Assembly (NCBI GenBank): GCA_965219455.1
Contig: OZ244744.1
Location: forward strand, 3,872,001-3,936,000
From: Candidatus Latescibacterota bacterium
GTDB lineage: Bacteria > Latescibacterota > UBA2968 > GCA-2709665
DNA length: 64,000 nucleotides
Reading direction: 5' to 3'
Shown here piece after piece: positions 1 to 24,530 of this stretch; position 1 is the first letter of the stretch, and each line of letters opens with the position of its first letter. The position numbers and the translations under genes were made by a program. A model generated the notes under the pieces. It saw nothing but the letters and a program-made list of their open reading frames with translations, had not been told where the DNA came from and made no database searches.

Positions 1-1275
1 GGCACCTGGAACATGGATCACTGGAAGCGGACCTCGCAGCAGCGCCAGGACGCATGGCGTTACCTTCAAACGGAGAACAAGGCTGACGTTATGCTGCTCC
101 AGGAAAGCGTTGCTCCGTCTGACATCCCCCGCAACCGATTCGTACACCGCGAGATCGCTGGCCGGCGGCCCTGGGGCTCGTCGGTTGTGGCGTTCGCCGA
201 TGACCTGGAAACAGAGGAGATCGATGCCGTGGGTACACGCTACGGCCCAACGAGGTTCAGTATGCTGGGAAGCCTTCCGGGTTCCGTGATTGTTGCTCGA
301 ATCCACGTGCCTGAAGTGGGCCCAATCACCTGTGTGAGTGTGTATGGCGCGATGGATGACGGCTATGCGCAAACAAGGATGTTTCGTGTTATCGCCGACC
401 TGATTCCGCTGTTTGACTCGGATGACGGCAGGCGCGTCATTCTGGGAGGCGACTTCAACGTTACAACTGCGGCAGGTCCGGATACGCTCGAACTGCCTCG
501 ATACCGCGCCCTGTTCGTTGCCATTGAATCACTCGGGCTCGTCAATCTCGTTACGACGGCAAAGGATCGTCCAGACCCCATGCCGGGTTGTCCATGCGGC
601 ACCGTCGACTGCCGCCACGTGCGAACGTTCGGCGACAATCCGGGCACACAGCTGGATTGGCTGTATGCCACGAAGGAACTCGCGCATCGGTGCACGCGGC
701 TGCGAGTCGATCACAACGTCATGGGCACCCGGAGTGACCACGCGCCTCTCATTGCCGAGTTTAAAGTCCCCCCACTCAAGGGCGGCATGGTTGTCGATCC
801 GGACTCATTTGTGCAGGAGTTGGGGGTCCGTGCCGGCTGCAAGTGTACTCGAATTGCCGAAGAACTGATTGCGTGGGCGCACCGGAAACACGTCGAACTC
901 GAAGGATCGGGCCGCAGGGTCGCGTATTTCAATCGAATGCCGACGCGCAATACCGATCCGCCGGAGATCTGGTTCCAACTCGACAGATTGCCATTGGCAG
1001 ACGGTAAGGGATTGTTGCAGTGGACCTTCAGTATCAAGGCTGACGGCCGCGTGGTCGTCCAATTCCAATACATGGCCCCCGCATTCGATACAATGAATGC
1101 TCGCGAAGAACTATGGTCTGATTTGTGCCGGATTGAAGGCGTGACCTTGGACAAGCGTCTGAACGGGCGACCGAGCTTTCCGTTGCAAAACCTCGCGCAA
1201 TCCGAACGCCGCGAGCAGTTTCAACGGGTGTTTTCCAACATGATCGACAAGACGCTGCGCGATAAAGCGGATTGA
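1..1275 (+). CDS. Endonuclease/exonuclease/phosphatase (EEP) family protein with extra C-terminal domain; 5' partial
   Basis: The frame is open from base 1 (GTWNMDHW, the EEP first-strand xTWN motif). Motifs DVMLLQE, GGDFN, QLDWLY and SDHAP are followed by a ~165-aa C-terminal domain (QFQYM...RPSFPL). The stop TGA lies inside GCGGATTGAAAC. Confidence 0.8.
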   Translation, partial: GTWNMDHWKRTSQQRQDAWRYLQTENKADVMLLQESVAPSDIPRNRFVHREIAGRRPWGSSVVAFADDLETEEIDAVGTRYGPTRFSMLGSLPGSVIVARIHVPEVGPITCVSVYGAMDDGYAQTRMFRVIADLIPLFDSDDGRRVILGGDFNVTTAAGPDTLELPRYRALFVAIESLGLVNLVTTAKDRPDPMPGCPCGTVDCRHVRTFGDNPGTQLDWLYATKELAHRCTRLRVDHNVMGTRSDHAPLIAEFKVPPLKGGMVVDPDSFVQELGVRAGCKCTRIAEELIAWAHRKHVELEGSGRRVAYFNRMPTRNTDPPEIWFQLDRLPLADGKGLLQWTFSIKADGRVVVQFQYMAPAFDTMNAREELWSDLCRIEGVTLDKRLNGRPSFPLQNLAQSERREQFQRVFSNMIDKTLRDKAD

Positions 1276-1351
1276 AACTGCGTCTACGAGGGTTTGAATC
1301 TGACCTACAGCCCTTCCCGTGAGAATCTTCCATCAGAACAAGATTTGAAAC
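1267..1351 (+). CRISPR. Degenerate repeat-spacer-repeat unit
   Basis: Repeat 3' end GCGGATTGAAAC (1267-1278), a 36-nt spacer-like segment (1279-1314), then the 37-bp repeat TCCCGTGAGAATCTTCCATCAGAACAAGATTTGAAAC (1315-1351; 33/37 to consensus). Confidence 0.65.
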
Positions 1352-1434: not shown

Positions 1435-2517
1435 ATGGCGCACCTGTTTGGACGCGACTACACGAAGGCGGAGCTGCTGCGGTTGGTCGGCGATATGAGC
1501 CAGCTCGCCGCCGTTCGCCGCGCGGAGCTGACCGAGGGCAACGAGCGCGGCGCCGGATTGATCGAGGTGAGCAACGCCTCCGGACTGAGCTTCTCGGTGC
1601 TGCCCGGACGGGCGCTGGACATCGCCGCCGCCACCTACCAGGGGCGGTCGCTGTGTTTCCGCAGCGCCACCGGCGACGTCGGACCGGCATTCTTCGAGCC
1701 CGCCGGTTACGGCTGGATGCGCAGTTTCTTCGGCGGCCTGCTGATCAGTTGCGGCCTGACCTTCGTCGGCCATCCCGAGACCGACACGGAGGAGGAAGGC
1801 GAGGAACTGGGCCTGCACGGGCGGCTGTCCGCCATCCCGGCGCGCGAGGTGAGCGCCGGCGGAAGCTGGCAGGGAGACCAATACCGCCTGCGCATCGCCG
1901 GCACCATGCGCGAAGCGGTGGCACTTGGCACCACCCTCGAGCTACGCCGCGAAATCACAACGACGCTGGGCGAGCGCCGCATCAGCATCCACGACCGCGT
2001 GGAGAACCTCGGCGGGTTGCGCTCGCCGTTGATGCTGCTGTACCACACCAATCCCGGCTTCCCGCTGCTCGACGAGGGTACCCGGTTCCTGGTCAACAGC
2101 CAGCTCAGCACCGAGTGGCTGCACGATCGCCCGGTCGATGCCGCGGAGTACGAGCGGGCGCGCGCCCCGGAGCCGGGCGCCGGCGACGACGTATACGTGC
2201 ACCGGCCGGTACCGGACGCCAACGGCAACGTGACCGTTGCGTTGATCAACGACCGGCTTGCGTACGGCCTGCAGTGGCGCATGCCGGCTGCCGAGCTACC
2301 GCTGGTCACCCAGTGGCAGCACTTCGCCGCCGCCGGCTATGTGACCGGCGTGGAGCCGGGCAACTGCTCGCCCCTCGGGCGCGCCTGGAACCGCAGGCAC
2401 GACTCCCTGGAGTACCTGGAACCCGGCGCCACACGCGAGTTCCACCTGGAGATCACCGTGCTCGACGGCGCCGCCGACGTCGCCGCCGCAGAGCGCCGCG
2501 TCGCCAACCTGGCTTGA
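1435..2517 (+). CDS. DUF4432 / aldose 1-epimerase-like protein, copy 1
   Basis: RBS-like GAGAGGAGAG before ATG 1435; motifs GRALDI, FFGGLLISCGL, LGLHGR, YHTNPGFPLL, TGVEPGN; near-identical to 15166-16248. Confidence 0.85.
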   Translation: MAHLFGRDYTKAELLRLVGDMSQLAAVRRAELTEGNERGAGLIEVSNASGLSFSVLPGRALDIAAATYQGRSLCFRSATGDVGPAFFEPAGYGWMRSFFGGLLISCGLTFVGHPETDTEEEGEELGLHGRLSAIPAREVSAGGSWQGDQYRLRIAGTMREAVALGTTLELRREITTTLGERRISIHDRVENLGGLRSPLMLLYHTNPGFPLLDEGTRFLVNSQLSTEWLHDRPVDAAEYERARAPEPGAGDDVYVHRPVPDANGNVTVALINDRLAYGLQWRMPAAELPLVTQWQHFAAAGYVTGVEPGNCSPLGRAWNRRHDSLEYLEPGATREFHLEITVLDGAADVAAAERRVANLA

Positions 2518-2598
2518 CCGCGGATAGTGCGTCCCCGCGCCTTAACCGTACACGAGACGCACCCCACAGAACAGCAGTGCCTCGCGTGCGCTCCACAC

Positions 2599-2914
2599 AC
2601 CGTCGGGAATCTTCCATCAGAACAAGGATTGAAACAGCTTATCATAGATCCAGAGTTGGAGTATGGGTCAGGTCGCCCCCCGTGCGGGAGCGGATTGAAA
2701 CAATATCACCGATGCAGAAAAGAACCAGGCGATCCATCTCCCCTCACTTCGGTGGGGGGAGCGGATTGAAACGTTGTTCGTCAAGCGTCCGACGCTGATT
2801 TCGTATTACATCTCCCCTCACTTCGGTGGCCTGCATGCTGCAAGCGGGGGAAGCGGATTGAAACAGGCTGGTGTCGCGCTGTTACCGGCCGGTTTTTTTT
2901 GTCTCCCGTCATTT
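2599..2914 (+). CRISPR. Orphan chimeric CRISPR mini-array (4 spacers, three repeat types)
   Basis: Repeats: 2599-2635 ACCGTCGGGAATCTTCCATCAGAACAAGGATTGAAAC; 2672-2701 GTCGCCCCCCGTGCGGGAGCGGATTGAAAC; 2736-2772 ATCTCCCCTCACTTCGGTGGGGGGAGCGGATTGAAAC; 2810-2864 the same with an 18-nt insertion; 2901-2914 degenerate start GTCTCCCGTCATTT. Spacers are 36, 34, 37 and 36 nt. Confidence 0.85.
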
Positions 2915-2954
2915 ATTTTTCATGTTCAACAACAGTGAATATTCCAGATCGGGA

Positions 2955-2982
2955 TTGAATCCCGCGTTTTCTTCTGTATATT
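2955..2982 (+). promoter_or_regulatory. Putative sigma70 promoter
   Basis: TTGAAT-16nt-TATATT upstream of the 945-aa ORF; homologous to 23055-23083. Confidence 0.45.
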
Positions 2983-3143
2983 CATCTCGACGCGGAGGTG
3001 CGTGTCGACGTGCCGAATAGCGGTTTGCGGAACTCCTCTTTGGCCAAAACGTATCTGCTGGTCATAGTACGAACCGCTATCCTCGGCTCGTCTGGTCCTT
3101 GTAACTGATCTTCTACACAATACACGGTGGGTAATTTGGACGT

Positions 3144-5981
3144 ATGTATGGACGAAACGAGGGTCACATGAATCGGCGCAAAGAATACGTCAGGGGTCAT
3201 CTTCGGCACCTCTGCGACGTGAATCTCCGACAACCATGGAATTCGAAATTCTGGCGGGTTGTTCGCTTTTCTTTTTTTCTTCTGATCGCCCTCCTGTGCG
3301 TGCCACCGTTTCTGCGCGCGCAACCCATCGCCATTGACCCAAATGCGCTCGACTTGGGTGTAGTTGGCGTCGGCGTGGAGACGCGAGCGTCCGTTTCGAT
3401 AGAAAACCTGAAAGACGACGCGCTTGAGGTGATCGTCGGCATTAGCGGCGACGGCTTTAGAGCGTTATCAGATACGCTACGCTTGGACGGCATGGGCGTC
3501 AGCATCGTCGAAGTGAGCTTTAGCGCCACTGCGGCCGGGGAGTATTCGGGCGAACTGACGATGCAAGTTGCCTCCTTATTCATAGACCAGCGCTTAGTCG
3601 TGCCGCTCCAAGCGGCAGCCGTCGTTCCAACCTTCGTGCTTCTACCAGCGGAGGGGCTGGATTTTGGCGCGGTGCCCGTCGGGCAAGTGGCGCTGGCGGT
3701 TGTTATAGTCAGAAATACTGGAACCGTGCCGGTGGCGGCTGGACAGATGGAAGTTGCCGACCTACAAGGCCCCTTTAGCGTTGAGGGCGATGTCGGCCCT
3801 TGGCCAGCTCCCGGCGGTGAAACGGGGATAAACGTTGCGTTTGCACCGACGGGCGCGGGGCTAGTCGCGACTGAGTTCGTCGTCACCGCACCCGACTTTG
3901 GGGATTGGTCCATTCCCCTGCAGGGGAGCGGTTTGGTGCCGGAAGCGGTTTTTTCTCCCCTCCCGGTAGTAGGCCTTGATTTTGGCACCGTCGAAGTGGG
4001 TCGGCGATTAACGCGCGACGTGACTGTTCTAAATCAGGGGCAAGCCGAGTTGCAAGTTGAAAACGTCGCCATCGAGGGTGCAGCATTTACCCTTGGAATA
4101 GGGAACTCATCGGCGACCATTGCTCCCACGGGGCGACATAATCTGAGCGCAGCGTTTGTGCCGCAGAGCGAAGGCGACCAAAGCGGTATCATGCGCCTGT
4201 ACACCAACGATCCGCAAGCTGCAAACGTTGCCATCCCCCTCGCGGGTCGCGGCCAAATCAGCCCGCCGCGCATCGAGATTATTAATGGCGACATTGACTT
4301 CGGCAGCGTGCCTATCGGCGAGAGCGAGCGCAGCCATTTGCTATTGTGGAACAAGGGTGGCCGGCCCGGTGTGGTGGAGGTCGCCGTGACTGCAGGTGAG
4401 GGTGTTGAATTTGGTCTCGAACAGACCTCGGTTCTCGTCCAGCCTAGGGCCAGCGCCCAAGTAGCTTTGAGTTTTTCGCCCAAGGAAGTCGGCTCTCGCC
4501 AAGCTACCCTTCACGTCGAGGCCGAAGCCGAGCGCCAGATTGTGCGCTTGCAGGGCGTAGGCCAGTTTATTGCCCTCAAACCGGCGACCGTGGACTTCGG
4601 TCGCGTCGCCGTCGGCGAAAGCAGCAGCCGAGTCGTCGAAATAGCCAATGTCGGCAACGCCGACTTTGAGATCCACCAGATTCGCTCGACGAGCACCGAA
4701 TTTACCGTTCCCACCCAAATCGACTTCAACAGGAGGTTCCTGCTGCCGCCCAACAGTCAGCGCACTTTGCCGCTGGAAGTGACCTTCATCCCGTCGGCGC
4801 GCGGAGCGATTTCGGGGAACTTGCGGTTGGACGGTTTGGGCGCGAAAGAGATAATGGCTCAAAACTTGTTGCTCAAGGGCCACGGCGTGGCCGCGGAAAT
4901 CGAGTTGAATCCGGAGGGCATCGTTGATTTTGGCTATGCGGTCTTGGGAGAGCAGGCGGAAAGGACCTTCGTGGTCACGAACGTCGGCGATACCGTGCTG
5001 CGAGTTGAGGCGCATCCCCTAAACAACGAAGCCCATATTGCACCGGCGCAATTCGCGCTGGCCGCGGGCAAGTCAGCGGACGTCACGCTCTTTTTTGCGC
5101 CCGATGCTTTAGGCGATCGCCGAGGGCGCGTTTTATTGGTCAGCAACAACGTCAAGGATCGTGCCCGTCCGCTCGAATACAAGGGGCACGGGGTACTCGC
5201 AGACATCGACTTGGCGCAGATTGTCGAGGTCCGGGTCACCCGCGGCGATAAGACCCAACCCTTGGCCGTTGGTTGGAACAATGTCCCCGTTGTGCAAAAA
5301 GACGGCACCAAAGTGGATGTGTCCTTTGCGATTCCCGACTCGCTGCGGCGGGCGCTAATCGGTCGCGAGATGGTCGTCGAGTGGACGCGGCTCGACGAAA
5401 ACTACGCCCCCAAAGGCAATAGCAGTAACCAAAAGCTGAAGGTTAGAATCAACGAATCGAGCGGCGGGCGGGTCTTAGCCGAGGATCTCAATTTGCAGCT
5501 GTCAGAAGACGACAATCGCCGAGTGCGACTCAGAATCACAACCCGAAGTTACCCGGGTGCGGAGTCTCAGAGCGTATCGCAGATTCTGGAAGCAGGGGGC
5601 TGGAAGTGGGAGTTTGAGGCCAAGCCGCTGTTTTCCTTTTTGACGATTCGTCCTGGGCGCGACTATACAGACGCCGATGGCAACGCGGTCCAAGGCAGAA
5701 CTGAGCGCCTGCTTGGCCTGCCCGGACTCGCTTTTGCCGGCTGGCACAACGTCGATAACCCGTCAATTTCCGGCATCCATCTGACCGTTATCGGCAACGT
5801 CCTCGAAGGCCTTTCAACCGAAAAATCGCTAGCCATTTCTCTGGGCGCGGCCGTTTCTTTTTACAAGGATCAGTTTCTCTTCGGCTTCGGGTGGGACATT
5901 TACGACAATCGACCCTTGGCCAGGAAGCAGGGTTCGCAGGACTACATTATGACCTTTAAGTACTCGGGACTGTTCAGGTGA
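3144..5981 (+). CDS. Exported protein with ~6 tandem Ig-like (choice-of-anchor D / ASH-type) domains
   Basis: Signal-peptide-like FFLLIALLCVPPFLRAQ; repeated ~100-aa units LDFGxVxVG...NxG...F-x-P...LxGxG; beta-rich C-terminus. The true start is probably downstream of 3144. Confidence 0.75.
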   Translation: MYGRNEGHMNRRKEYVRGHLRHLCDVNLRQPWNSKFWRVVRFSFFLLIALLCVPPFLRAQPIAIDPNALDLGVVGVGVETRASVSIENLKDDALEVIVGISGDGFRALSDTLRLDGMGVSIVEVSFSATAAGEYSGELTMQVASLFIDQRLVVPLQAAAVVPTFVLLPAEGLDFGAVPVGQVALAVVIVRNTGTVPVAAGQMEVADLQGPFSVEGDVGPWPAPGGETGINVAFAPTGAGLVATEFVVTAPDFGDWSIPLQGSGLVPEAVFSPLPVVGLDFGTVEVGRRLTRDVTVLNQGQAELQVENVAIEGAAFTLGIGNSSATIAPTGRHNLSAAFVPQSEGDQSGIMRLYTNDPQAANVAIPLAGRGQISPPRIEIINGDIDFGSVPIGESERSHLLLWNKGGRPGVVEVAVTAGEGVEFGLEQTSVLVQPRASAQVALSFSPKEVGSRQATLHVEAEAERQIVRLQGVGQFIALKPATVDFGRVAVGESSSRVVEIANVGNADFEIHQIRSTSTEFTVPTQIDFNRRFLLPPNSQRTLPLEVTFIPSARGAISGNLRLDGLGAKEIMAQNLLLKGHGVAAEIELNPEGIVDFGYAVLGEQAERTFVVTNVGDTVLRVEAHPLNNEAHIAPAQFALAAGKSADVTLFFAPDALGDRRGRVLLVSNNVKDRARPLEYKGHGVLADIDLAQIVEVRVTRGDKTQPLAVGWNNVPVVQKDGTKVDVSFAIPDSLRRALIGREMVVEWTRLDENYAPKGNSSNQKLKVRINESSGGRVLAEDLNLQLSEDDNRRVRLRITTRSYPGAESQSVSQILEAGGWKWEFEAKPLFSFLTIRPGRDYTDADGNAVQGRTERLLGLPGLAFAGWHNVDNPSISGIHLTVIGNVLEGLSTEKSLAISLGAAVSFYKDQFLFGFGWDIYDNRPLARKQGSQDYIMTFKYSGLFR

Positions 5982-14696: not shown

Positions 14697-15083
14697 ATGT
14701 ACGTCTTCCTGGACAATATCACGTTTCTATACAGAGGCGCGCAGACGTCCGTCCTCAACGGGCTTACGCTCTTCGTGTGATAGCGGGAGATTGTCGGGAT
14801 AATCGGGTCTGCGGGGGTCGGCAAGACGACGCTGCTACGATACGTTGGCAAGCGCTCGGACCGGCGCGCCTTCATCCATGACCTGCACGCCCTGCGCAAG
14901 ATGCCGCAGCACCGAACGGTGATTTACGCCACGCGCGACGCCGGAGATGCCCTGGCGGTCTCAGACCGGATCGTGGTGCTGCAAGTCGGAACTCTATTGA
15001 TTGAGGCAACGATGGGTGAAGGTTTCGATATGCTGAAGAAGCGATACGCCCCGTTGAAAACCTTCCATCAGAACGTGGATTGA
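14697..15083 (+). pseudogene. ABC transporter ATP-binding relic (two in-frame stops, internal deletion)
   Basis: MYVFLDNITF...LFV**REIVGIIGSAGVGKTTLL joins directly to RTVIYATRDAGDALAVSDRIVVLQ; the frame ends at a TGA inside the repeat at 15050-15086. Confidence 0.7.
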
Positions 15084-15086
15084 AAC
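15050..15086 (+). repeat. Solitary CRISPR-type repeat
   Basis: CCCGTTGAAAACCTTCCATCAGAACGTGGATTGAAAC, 32/37 to consensus. Confidence 0.8.
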
Positions 15087-15165
15087 GGCGCCGGCGGCGA
15101 AGCAGAGGTCGACTACACTGTACGACCGCTGACGGGGCGCCGCCCCGTCCACGAGAGGAGAGAGC

Positions 15166-16248
15166 ATGGCGCATCTGTTTGGACGCGACTACACGAAGGC
15201 GGAGCTGCTGCGGTTGGTCGGCGATATGAGCCAGCTCGCCGCCGTTCGCCGCGCCGAGCTGACCGAGGGCAACGAGCGCGGCGCCGGATTAATCGAGGTG
15301 AGCAACGCCTCCGGACTGAGCTTCTCGGTGCTGCCCGGACGGGCGCTGGACGTCGCCGCCGCCACCTACCAGGGGCGGTCGCTGTGTTTCCGCAGCGCCA
15401 CCGGCGACGTCGGACCGGCATTCTTCGAGCCCGCCGGTTACGGCTGGATGCGCAGTTTCTTCGGCGGCCTGCTGATCAGTTGCGGCCTGACCTTCGTCGG
15501 CCATCCCGAAACCGACCCGGAGGAGGAAGGCGAGGAACTGGGCCTGCACGGGCGGCTGTCCGCCATCCCGGCGCGCGAGGTGAGTGCCGGCGGAAGCTGG
15601 CATGGAGACCAATACCGCCTGCGCATCGCCGGCACCATGCGCGAAGCGGTGGCACTTGGCACGACGCTTGAGCTACGCCGCGAAATCACCACTACGCTGG
15701 GCGAGCGCCGCATCAGCATCCACGACCGCGTGGAGAACCTCGGCGGGTTGCGCTCGCCGTTGATGCTGCTGTACCACACCAATCCCGGCTTCCCCCTGCT
15801 CGACGAGGGTACCCGGTTCCTGGTCAACAGCCAGCTCAGTACCGAGTGGCTGCAGGACCGCCCGGTCGTTGCCGCAGTGTACGAGCGGGCGCGCGCCCCG
15901 GAGCCGGGCGCCGGCGACGATGTATACGTGCACCGGCCGGTACCGGACGCCAACGGCAACGTGACCGTTGCGTTGATCAACGACCGGCTTGCGTACGGCC
16001 TGCAGTGGCGCATGCCGGCTGCCGAGCTGCCGCTGGTCACCCAGTGGCAGCACTTCGCCGCCGGCGGCTACGTGACCGGCGTGGAGCCGGGCAACTGCTC
16101 GCCTCTCGGGCGCGCCTGGAACCGCAGGCACGACTTCCTGGAGTACCTGGAACCCGGCGCCACACGCGAGTTCCACCTGGAGATCACCGTACTCGACGGC
16201 GCCGCCGCCGTCGCCGCCGCCGAGCGCCGCGTCGCCAACCTGGCCTAA
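15166..16248 (+). CDS. DUF4432 / aldose 1-epimerase-like protein, copy 2
   Basis: 360 aa; only a handful of substitutions relative to 1435-2517. Confidence 0.85.
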   Translation: MAHLFGRDYTKAELLRLVGDMSQLAAVRRAELTEGNERGAGLIEVSNASGLSFSVLPGRALDVAAATYQGRSLCFRSATGDVGPAFFEPAGYGWMRSFFGGLLISCGLTFVGHPETDPEEEGEELGLHGRLSAIPAREVSAGGSWHGDQYRLRIAGTMREAVALGTTLELRREITTTLGERRISIHDRVENLGGLRSPLMLLYHTNPGFPLLDEGTRFLVNSQLSTEWLQDRPVVAAVYERARAPEPGAGDDVYVHRPVPDANGNVTVALINDRLAYGLQWRMPAAELPLVTQWQHFAAGGYVTGVEPGNCSPLGRAWNRRHDFLEYLEPGATREFHLEITVLDGAAAVAAAERRVANLA

Positions 16249-16375
16249 CCGGGGACAGTGGGTCCCCGCGTCGATGTGCGCGCGCCTCCTCCTGAGCACG
16301 GATAGTCATCACCTTGCGCGTCTCTCGGAGCGTATGTGCCGACTGTCCATCGAAGGTGCCGTCAGTCGCCCGCCG

Positions 16376-18208: not shown

Positions 18209-18359
18209 GAGATACTCCGGATGCGCTGACGTCAAAAGATCGCCTTTTTAGTTTTTGGCTGACTGCTGTCGGCTGAAGCCTGCTTTCTTTGTCGCGGTAA
18301 TTGCGACAACAGGTGTTTATATTTATCCGCGTGATCTCTTCGCACGACGTACAAAACTG

Positions 18360-18442
18360 CAGCGCCGTACGGTGACGTACGCCGCGCGAGACGTCAGCGA
18401 CGCCCTGGCGGTCGCGGACCGGATCGCGGTGCTGCAAGGCGG
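18360..18442 (+). pseudogene. ABC ATP-binding fragment (3' part)
   Basis: RRTVTYAARDVSDALAVADRIAVLQGG; paralogous to ~14910-14989. Confidence 0.65.
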
Positions 18443-18481: not shown

Positions 18482-18518
18482 CCCGCAAATGTAGATCCAC
18501 CAGAACAAGGATTGAAAC
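18482..18518 (+). repeat. Solitary CRISPR-type repeat (variant)
   Basis: CCCGCAAATGTAGATCCACCAGAACAAGGATTGAAAC; 27/37 to consensus, last 18 nt identical. Confidence 0.75.
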
Positions 18519-18629
18519 CCGAAGCCCGGAAGTTGCCGGGTGGCGAGCGGTCCATTCAGGCTTTTCGCGAAAACCTGCCGGGGGACCACGTTGGCGATAT
18601 CCGGTGGGACTCTATGGGAGAGCTGAACG

Positions 18630-19106
18630 ATGACTATCGATATGCCCAACAAACCGAACAAGATGACCGACACCTTCACCGGCCGGGCCTGGCACGAGGA
18701 CGGCACGCCGTTCGCACCTGTTGACTACAATGAGTCCGGACTGCGTGTCCCCACCCTGTCCCAGTTGGCCCTGTGGGCCAGGGCCGACCGTGAGCACGCT
18801 GCGGAGCCCGGTGAGAATCTCCCATCAGAAAAAGGATTGAAACGGGATGCTCTGGTGGCGATGGACTCGGGCCAGACCGTGCCGGTTGCCGGGGGGAACG
18901 TAGGCGGCGGAACCGGGAGGATCTGCCACCACGTCAACGGCGAGAGCGGGACATCGTTGCGCCCGGCCGAGGCGGCCGATGAAGCAATCATCAACGCGCT
19001 GGTCGCGGCCGGGACCATGATTGGACCGAACGATGTGACGGTGCGAGCGCTACTGCATGACCGGTTGCGGGAGCAGTTGCGGAGTTACAACCGGGAGGAG
19101 GGCTGA
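18630..19106 (+). pseudogene. Chimeric ORF: unknown N-terminus + in-frame repeat + internally deleted DmpA/P1 peptidase fragment
   Basis: After the repeat-encoded PGENLPSEKGLK come GNVGGGTGRICH and EAADEAIINALVAA...HDRL..YNR, both DmpA (peptidase S58) motifs. Confidence 0.6.
18807..18843 (+). repeat. Solitary CRISPR-type repeat
   Basis: CCCGGTGAGAATCTCCCATCAGAAAAAGGATTGAAAC, 35/37 to consensus. Confidence 0.85.
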
Positions 19107-19109
19107 GCG

Positions 19110-19661
19110 ATGCCCAACGGAGGATCTGACTGTTGCGGAACCTGCTGGTTCAATAGAACGAACCGGGGCGAGCGCGACTGGCAGCGGCACGCAGGCGAGA
19201 ACATACCGCCCTATTGCGAGATCAGGGACATCGCGATAGAGGATCCATTCTACACCTATTGTGCGAACCATCCACGTCGCCGGCCCGATCGCGATCGCAT
19301 CCCCATCGGACCGGTGATGCGCCATGGCGGCTGGGAACAGGAACGGCGCGTGCAAGCCGGTCGACCCGACGAGTGGGTGTCCTGGGAAAACCCGCGTTAC
19401 GTCTGGAGACCCTCACCGGATTCGGAGGAGATTCGCCAACACCTGCTGAATTTGCTCGAGAGCGTATTCGAGCACATGGCCAGAGACCGATATCCTTTGG
19501 GCACAGGTCTGGGGGAGACGATCATCCGGCAATTCGGTGAATTTCGAGAGCAACGGGCGGTCAGGTATCTCGAATGGATACGCGAGAATCTTAGGGACTC
19601 TCTGGATTTCATGGCAGACGCTGCGAGCGAGGCGCTGGCCAGGATCCGAGGGGACGAATAA
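19110..19661 (+). CDS. Hypothetical protein with Cys-rich N-terminus and helical C-terminus
   Basis: RBS GGAGGAGG; MPNGGSDCCGTCWFN...YCEIR...YTYCANH. Confidence 0.7.
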   Translation: MPNGGSDCCGTCWFNRTNRGERDWQRHAGENIPPYCEIRDIAIEDPFYTYCANHPRRRPDRDRIPIGPVMRHGGWEQERRVQAGRPDEWVSWENPRYVWRPSPDSEEIRQHLLNLLESVFEHMARDRYPLGTGLGETIIRQFGEFREQRAVRYLEWIRENLRDSLDFMADAASEALARIRGDE

Positions 19662-19672
19662 GAGCGCCGCGG

Positions 19673-19709
19673 CCCGGTGAGAATCTTCCATCAAAACAAG
19701 GGTTCAAAT
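19673..19709 (+). repeat. Solitary CRISPR-type repeat
   Basis: CCCGGTGAGAATCTTCCATCAAAACAAGGGTTCAAAT, 33/37; 11 nt after a stop codon and 27 nt before the next ATG. Confidence 0.8.
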
Positions 19710-20903: not shown

Positions 20904-21075
20904 ATGTTCGTTTTCCTCGACAATATCACCTTTCGATACAGAGGCGCAAAGACGCCCGTCCTCGACGGGCTGACGCTTTTTGTACGGTCGGGGGAGATTG
21001 TCGCGATAATCGGGTCTGCGGGCGCCGGCAAGACGACGCTGCTGCGATACGTTGGCAAACGCTCGGACCGGCAGG
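20904..21075 (+). pseudogene. ABC ATP-binding fragment (5' part, Walker A)
   Basis: MFVFLDNITFRY...GEIVAIIGSAGAGKTTLL; paralogous to ~14697-14865, then fused to unrelated sequence. Confidence 0.7.
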
Positions 21076-24021: not shown

Positions 24022-24124
24022 AGGCAGAGATAAGACGCGACGCATCAATAGTACATCCCAAATGGTATCACAGTACATACGGTCTTCCGCACTGATCGCA
24101 CGAGACAGGAGAGTCCGGATTTTT

Positions 24125-24148
24125 GTAGGGGCGGTTCGCGAACCGCCC
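24125..24148 (+). repeat. REP-like palindrome
   Basis: GTAGGGGCGGTTCGCGAACCGCCC. Confidence 0.65.
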
Positions 24149-24530
24149 GCCGTGTGGCCCCTTAAATTTGTACCTCGGCCACCCGGTGGTTGCGTGGGGG
24201 GTTTTGCCGCGTAATTCCGTCCAGCATTTTAGTACTGGTACATCTGACGGGCACGTAGGGCATCCAATTCCCATTTATGTCTCTGAGGCGATTCGCGGAA
24301 AAACCGGCCCCGCGGCGTTTGAGCGGCGCCCTTCTTTTTCGCCCTTTTTCTTGGGCGAAGCAAGAAAAAGGGCAAGGGAATAGGGGACGTTAGGGGTGGG
24401 GGAGAATCTATTCGTTCCCATGTCGATTATGGCACGAAATTCCCCATCTGGACCGACAGATTAAGCCCGGCATCGTGATTCACGCGTCTACAATTTATCG
24501 GTAATTACAGAAACCATAAGGAGAACGAAA

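Follow-up and report, generated by a model that had tools for sequence, protein, structure and literature searches.

Repeats at the far, old end of a CRISPR array decay, and arrays can outlast their cas genes. Degenerate terminal repeats and orphan arrays have been described already, as have ectopic regulatory repeats and prophage integration into repeats. In type I-C systems, the Cas5 nuclease cuts a repeat composed of a hairpin and an 11-nt tail (bioRxiv 10.1101/2024.12.27.630466), and in Streptococcus pyogenes the integration of prophages into CRISPR repeats has been reported (bioRxiv 10.1101/2020.10.09.333658). Among the literature matches listed, there is no array that mixes repeats of different subtypes, no trailer stratified by three systems and no repeats that punctuate genes. 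The locus described here differs from degenerate trailers and orphan arrays in two respects: its unlike repeats represent three lineages, each with full arrays in congeners, rather than drifted copies, and all three families are found a second time within the locus, with their order inverted.

The window, i.e. the whole stretch of 64,000 nt analysed here, corresponds to positions 3872001-3936000 of a Candidatus Latescibacterota genome. The initial annotation had proposed a mini CRISPR array with three repeat families, and direct reading of window positions 2300-3300 confirms it. Five co-oriented repeat units, all on the + strand, and four unique spacers of 34-37 nt lie at 2599-2911, and the spacer lengths of 36, 34, 37 and 36 nt are borne out as well. 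The first unit, F1 (2599-2635), is the dispersed 37-mer, an unstructured repeat of a type I-B family, and is followed by spacer 1 (2636-2671, 36 nt). F2 (2672-2701) is a 30-mer, GTCGCCCCCCGTGCGGGAGCGGATTGAAAC, a degenerate repeat of the classical I-C lineage that starts with GTCGCC and precedes spacer 2 (2702-2735, 34 nt). F3, defined as ATCTCCCCTCACTTCGGTGGGGGGAGCGGATTGAAAC, occupies 2736-2772 (37 nt) and departs from the resident repeat by a single change in the loop, which is TTCG instead of TCCG. Spacer 3 (2773-2809, 37 nt) is flanked by an F3-type repeat on either side, the second of which (2810-2864, 55 nt) carries an insertion of 16-18 nt after GGTGG and retains an intact tail. Spacer 4 (2865-2900, 36 nt) leads to a truncated fifth repeat, GTCTCCCGTCA (2901-2911), an 11-nt stump located at the expected distance, in which 10 of the first 12 bases of F3 are matched. 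The locus therefore possesses the features by which an array is recognised, at least three regularly spaced direct repeats and unique spacers of uniform length (each spacer is unique within its own genome by blastn-short), and it lacks near-identical repeats within the array.

The three families share GATTGAAAC as their common end, and only the last 10 nt are common to all of them. F2 had been read as an I-C 5' part joined to the 3' part of F3, and this holds, in that the last 16 nt of F2 are also the last 16 nt of F3. The 5' part of F2 is closest to the trailer repeat of the main array described below, and F2 also partly matches an I-C array carried by a plasmid of Nitratidesulfovibrio vulgaris. 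The window contains 8 occurrences of GGATTGAAAC, where 0.15 are expected, a count that none of 100 shuffles reaches, and the 5.84-Mb genome contains 41, of which 24 lie within 26 kb around the mini-array locus. The start of the F1 core, ATCTTCCATCAG (2609-2620), and the start of F3, ATCTCCCCTCAC (2736-2747), are identical at 9 of 12 positions; because these positions lie in different registers of the two repeats, the likeness may reflect deep kinship or chance.

The families are also distinguished by their predicted folds. The TTCG form of F3 in the mini-array folds into a 10-bp stem with 11 unpaired nt (-19.1 kcal/mol, z -3.7), and F3 folds overall range from -19 to -20 kcal/mol with z about -3.5, so that F3 displays the stable hairpin and the 11-nt tail ending in ATTGAAAC that characterise type I-C repeats. 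F2 forms a weak hairpin (-9.4 kcal/mol, z -0.8), and F1 has no stem (-3.2 kcal/mol, z +1.15). Rfam gave sub-threshold hits only, the best being CRISPR-DR9 for F3 (31.1 bits, gathering threshold 45) and CRISPR-DR7 for F1 (23.5 bits, gathering threshold 37). Spacer 4 contains a hairpin at 2866-2890 and eight T at 2893-2900 (-12.7 kcal/mol, z -2.2); the hairpin at 2866-2900 is not listed by the consensus terminator scan, which accepts loops of 3-8 nt, and its loop is 9 nt.

The main array is located just upstream of the window and comprises 13 identical F3 copies with a TCCG loop, directly after the cas operon. The mini-array starts ~7.7 kb after this F3 block, and cas2 lies ~9 kb upstream of it. 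The resident operon has the order cas5-cas8-cas7-cas3-cas4-cas1-cas2, with cas3 after cas7 and not at the operon head. Cas1c scores 418.9 bits, above its cut-off of 385; three further family matches fall below their cut-offs, i.e. the cas5 gene against Cas5d (40.3 bits, cut-off 85), the cas7 gene against Csd2 (115.7 bits, cut-off 182) and the cas8 gene against Csd1 (23.6 bits, cut-off 27), and Cas3, Cas4 and Cas2 are present. Judged from sequence, we class the resident system as a probable, divergent type I-C. At the start of cas2 (L002:517-531, genome ~3865517-3865531), 14 nt match the F3 tail, GAGCGGATTGAAAC, and overlap the ribosome-binding site and the likely start of cas2; this match is kept in the congener G013, at the same distance of 498 nt from the first repeat.

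Beyond its 13 F3 copies, the main array ends in a trailer composed of a 31-nt spacer, a 32-nt F2-like repeat, GTCGCTCTCCGTGAGGGAGCGTGAATTGAAAC, and two F1 copies at normal spacing. The main array thus reads F3 (13 copies), F2-like, F1, F1, and the mini-array reads F1, F2, F3. The possibility that the three repeats are drifted variants of a single array elsewhere in the genome, raised in the initial annotation, stands in one part, namely that all three families are present in one main array nearby, and falls in the other, in that they are distinct lineages and not drifted copies of one repeat. No further array was found in the genome by a k-mer scan. Other periodic repeats in the genome were rejected as CRISPR candidates, being coding tandem repeats that resemble leucine-rich repeats and have exact periods of 66 or 72 nt. 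Cognate cas genes are present for F3 and were not found for F1: tblastn with seven type I-B proteins of the congener G009 matched only the resident cas1 and cas4 in this genome, and no Cas6 family match was obtained there. The suggestion of a guide or decoy cassette serving several systems finds no support in these data, given a single cas system and no other array in the genome, where neither Cas6b nor any further I-B gene was found.

Each of the three families forms full arrays in related genomes. The F1 core, with up to 3 mismatches, was found in 21 of the 61 genomes searched, including 12 of the 14 congeners, and many of the F1-bearing genomes have F1 arrays of 37-140 copies with a period of 72-76 nt. 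In G009 the F1 array adjoins cas6b, a cas8b-like gene, cas7, cas5b, cas3, cas1 and cas4, where cas6b carries the Pfam domains Cas6b_N and Cas6b_C and cas7 belongs to Cst2/DevR (221 bits). By these profiles the system beside the F1 array is of type I-B, and F1 arrays standing beside a cas6b-cas8b-cas7-cas5-cas3 operon, as expected of a type I-B repeat, are thus found in G009. Cas6b is encoded in 3 of the 15 genus genomes (G003, G006 and G009), all three of which have F1 arrays; the query used gave no match in the other 12, the genome of the window included. G011 has an F1-type array and no Cas6b match.

The two I-C lineages are distributed differently. The classical I-C repeat, GTCGCCCCCCACGCGGGGGCGTGGATTGAAAC, to whose lineage F2 belongs, forms an array in G014, an assignment made at the array level only. 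The F2 30-mer itself, with up to 3 mismatches, was found in 1 of the 61 genomes, its own. F3 was found in 6 of the 61, with arrays in G010, G011, G013 and the more distant G057, and the TTCG form seen in the mini-array is the array repeat of G010 and G013. Across the genus, then, the locus holds one of three systems by species: I-B with Cas6b (F1), a classical I-C array (F2 lineage) or the variant I-C (F3). The Cas8 of the window's genome has no match in G013, which carries a 37-repeat F3 array, and is ~30% identical to its counterparts in G010 and G011, each with one in-frame stop. In a neighbouring family, the F1-type arrays of L017/G030, L019/G046 and L022/G039 contain at least two repeat variants each, with different 5' halves and identical 3' halves.

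The site of the mini-array itself varies between close relatives. G011 and G013 retain the 3' end of the DUF4432 gene together with F1 (window 2400-2636) at 95-97% identity. After F1, G013 has no further repeat and nothing array-like, and in G011 another spacer, also of 36 nt, leads to a single F3-like repeat. From ~2924 onwards, ahead of a large Ig-like gene, the sequence is again homologous to G013 and G010; the mini-array therefore lies at the right edge of a variable zone. Similar variation exists between strains. In contig X15, position 2688 is joined to 2852 via 13 shared bases, with flanks ~95% identical, and spacer 1, F2 and spacer 4 are retained in this ~5%-diverged strain; X15 is an RNA-library contig with a variant of the locus and has no bearing on transcription or RNA ends. 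In contig X7, 2685 is joined to 2757 via 16 shared bases. Both junctions fall within the tail common to F2 and F3. A form found in X1 reads F1, a different 33-nt spacer and then F3. Mixed neighbours, i.e. an F2- or F3-type repeat, a short spacer and F1, recur in G001, G010 and G014, and G001 carries an F3-like repeat with a 33-nt insertion (starting with CCTGC) at the same site as the insertion of the mini-array F3, at the head of a three-repeat mini-array. Among the 150 matches listed, out of ~1,280, no spacer is in common with the arrays of relatives.

Direct observation covers the three families, the synteny and the variants found in the population. These data lead us to regard as probable that the locus is a mosaic orphan mini-array, which arose by serial replacement of CRISPR-Cas modules and by recombination via the shared tail. 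The proposal of the initial annotation that arrays of different subtypes recombined via a common 3' tail gains support from the separate full-array lineages of congeners, from the strain joints inside the 13- and 16-nt tail and from the hybrid nature of F2. In the proposed course of events, successive CRISPR-Cas modules would have displaced each other at the locus, where old trailer repeats stayed in place; pieces of different ages would then have been joined via the tail of 10-16 nt by unequal crossing-over, deletion and gene conversion. A crossover or gene conversion may have placed the younger repeats behind the old F1, with the order F1, F2, F3, F3 with insertion and stump as the presumed outcome. 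Because arrays grow at the leader end, the trailer order F3, F2, F1 fits type I-B as the oldest and the variant I-C as the newest system. The family order of the mini-array is opposite to that of the main-array trailer, which counts against this reading; leader-end growth cannot by itself give the mini-array, whose order requires one or more duplications or crossovers.

Some guides of this mosaic may have outlived the rest. A stable hairpin and an 11-nt tail that type I-C Cas5 could cut would be provided by the F3-type repeats only, and for this reason at most spacers 2-4 could mature into guides for the resident Cascade. No processing enzyme for F1 was found in its own genome. Because F1 is left without such an enzyme and only F3-type units appear cuttable, the array is presumably for the most part a fossil, with one to three old guides perhaps still in use. 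The persistence of spacer 1, F2 and spacer 4 in the diverged strain, together with the G001 counterpart of the F3 insertion, could mean selection.

The mini-array is one part of a larger field of F1 copies. All eight F1 copies of this genome are on the + strand and lie within 24.7 kb downstream of the main array. A two-repeat remnant at 1266-1351 (+) comprises a tail-only repeat, AGCGGATTGAAAC (1266-1278), 36 nt and an F1 copy at 1315-1351. The tail-only remnant supplies the last codons and the stop of an Exo_endo_phos-like ORF (13-1275). Another copy, at 15050-15086 (+), stands ahead of DUF4432 copy B and does end in the I-C-like CGTGGATTGAAAC, as had been noticed before; the segments 1316-2539 and 15050-16270 are 95.6% identical over 1225 nt. 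Solitary copies are located at 18482-18518 (+), with an orthologous copy in G013, at 18807-18843 (+) and, in degenerate form, at 19673-19709 (+), upstream of an Exo_endo_phos gene whose ATG lies 27 nt further on. In 12 of the 14 congeners, solitary F1 copies punctuate a gene island next to the array, and the F1 copies of any one locus are all on the same strand.

These copies allow a different reading, which we hold to be unlikely: the mini-array might be a segment of a repeat-punctuated gene island in which solitary I-B repeats act as functional 5' or intercistronic elements (RNA processing, translation signals or cassette entry sites), and the F1 at 2599 would be one such element followed by short spacers by chance. 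Among 59 distinct solitary F1 copies from the genus loci fetched, conservation is confined to positions -36 to 0, with unrelated flanks on both sides; the search pattern excluded the 14 bases from -36 to -23, yet these are conserved too. This, like the single strand used by all copies of a locus, would suit functional elements, but any array in decay should show repeats with sharp boundaries. In 21 of the 59 copies, an ORF that starts with ATG and encodes at least 40 aa begins within 8 nt of the repeat end, against 4.4% at random positions, and 16 of these 21 ORFs belong to one family of ~58-aa proteins. The family occurs in 12 of the 14 congeners, with or without Cas6b, in one sister-genus genome and in none of 31 genomes of the neighbouring family. 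Its breadth irrespective of Cas6b favours the punctuated island, as does the fact that F1 also precedes unrelated genes, namely DUF4432 (twice), the Exo_endo_phos gene and a 493-aa membrane-protein-like ORF. The ATG enrichment, however, is driven by paralogues duplicated together with their repeat, many solitary F1 copies have mutated tails even in the Cas6b-bearing G009, and 12 of the 15 genus genomes are without Cas6b by the query used. The dispersed F1 copies could simply be what is left of an old, decaying I-B array that received gene insertions, with the genes later duplicated along with their repeats; alternatively, F1 may have been kept as an intercistronic signal.

The small proteins deserve a description of their own. 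A member at 18630-18815 (+) carries the motif WHxDGTP...DY...G..VPT..Q...WA (E 6e-28). Tandem units composed of a solitary I-B repeat, 1-8 nt and a ~58-aa ORF are present in window 18482-19709 and in loci L047, L048, L050 and L051, and the ORF motif in these units is WHPDGTP..DY..AG.PVPT..Q...WAE. The family has no match in Pfam, PHROG or the Atlas. Its AlphaFold model (pLDDT 77) shows two helices and has no PDB match at E <= 0.001.

In each congener that has the island, exact 37-nt units stand among co-directional genes downstream of whichever array is present, all of them oriented like that array. A related proposal, to which we likewise give little credence, regards the island as an array with gene-sized spacers. 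Cassettes would have entered at repeats, multiplied by repeat-to-repeat crossover, and been expressed from or cut out of the pre-crRNA, and the mini-array would be the part in which normal spacers survive. Fragments of an ABC-transporter ATPase gene are found three times in the island (14697-15040, 18359-18442 and 20904-21072), two of them just upstream of F1, and their recurrence points to segmental duplication and decay there. At 24113-24427 lies a dispersed repeat of ~230 nt, which looks like a miniature mobile element; dozens of copies, 72-93% identical, are spread over both strands of the genome.

Returning to the mosaic, the question of its guides leads to a further alternative, a regulatory mini-array of the crRNA-like, CreA or SRU kind. 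According to this reading, for which the probability is low, unlike repeats would stabilise a few fixed guides, one of which, most likely spacer 4, would steer the resident Cascade to repress a host promoter. The last unit, in which a hairpin repeat with an 11-nt tail is followed by a guide-like stretch, a 3' hairpin and a U run, is indeed built like an I-C crlRNA (bioRxiv 10.1101/2024.12.27.630466), and degenerate repeats resist recombination in CreTA (PMC9458426). The retention of spacers 1 and 4 in the ~95% related strain and a candidate defence gene, PDC-S37/Hhe-like, at the border of the array point in the same direction. The search for targets does not. Seed searches with positions 6 and 12 left free, both genome-wide and from -30 to +64 kb, gave chance-level matches only, so that partial promoter complementarity next to a PAM, the hallmark of crRNA-like regulators (SRU, CreA, crlRNA), was not seen there. 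The best match with a TTC PAM, 13 of 14 bases of spacer 4, lies 1.6 Mb away inside an ORF that we take to be rbfA from the sizes of neighbouring ORFs. Moreover, the content after F1 differs among G000, G011 and G013, the truncated fifth repeat is the mark of a broken array, and the locus lies outside the cas operon, ~9 kb beyond cas2.

Conventional targets were sought as well. With blastn-short, 20 spacers gave chance-level matches only in the genome, and no protospacer turned up among 50,697 phage and 72,556 plasmid records; plasmid matches were rejected as protospacers, as they reflect repeat similarity to other arrays. The large helicase-nuclease at window 9511-14269 matches PDC-S37 and Hhe in PADLOC and DUF4011, AAA_11/12, MTES_1575 and DUF3320 in Pfam. 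Its gene is broken into two ORFs that overlap and span positions 6-703 and 726-1542 of the profile, and is probably frameshifted for this reason.

That the assembly of this metagenome-derived genome collapsed or mis-joined repeats from separate strains or arrays is extremely improbable: several related strains with differing versions of the locus do occur in the same runs, and none of the contig pieces listed bridges 2711-2742, but the genome is one 5.84-Mb contig, contigs of X1, which may be the source sample, are identical to the assembly over 2449-2710 and 2743-3300, the X7 and X15 variants have the same flanks, and comparable mixed arrays exist in five other genomes.

If the mosaic origin is right, the locus would be a readable record of CRISPR-Cas turnover, in which I-B, classical I-C and divergent I-C systems occupied one site in turn and left their old trailers in place. 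The strain variants offer population-level examples of repeat recombination across subtypes via a tail of 13-16 nt, a possible route by which spacers are shuffled or lost across systems. In practice, such loci would be overlooked or broken up by array finders that assume a single repeat for each array. Were the solitary repeats to prove functional punctuation of the gene island, they would represent a new use of CRISPR repeats.

Several described systems come close to the locus, each in a different trait. With the CRISIS I-C crRNA-like RNAs (bioRxiv 10.1101/2024.12.27.630466) and CreA (PMC9458426) it shares ectopic, degenerate hairpin repeats, an 11-nt tail, a 3' hairpin and a position near an I-C system and defence genes. 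It differs from them in that no partial promoter target with a PAM was found, and in its four spacers and five repeats, its place outside the cas operon and a content that varies between close relatives. RNA anti-CRISPRs (PMC10651486) are likewise single CRISPR repeats outside arrays; those are reported to be viral and to mimic the active repeat of the host, whereas the F1 copies lie on the chromosome in the orientation of the array and mimic a system absent from the genome. An RNA anti-CRISPR (Racr) would be carried by a virus or plasmid; no phage or plasmid record searched matches the locus, a ParA-like gene and the split defence helicase lie nearby, and no mobile element was delimited. As in the S. 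pyogenes case (bioRxiv 10.1101/2020.10.09.333658), entry of DNA at a repeat would leave repeat-flanked genes and the loss or transfer of spacers; unlike that case, no integrase or phage gene was identified between the repeats here, and the insertion route is hypothetical. Finally, the locus resembles virus-borne mini-CRISPR arrays (PMC6858448) in its very short array and the I-B arrays of Leptospira interrogans serovar Lai (PMC9372919) in having several small arrays at one cas locus, and it is distinguished from both by its three repeat families, those arrays being reported with a single repeat type each.
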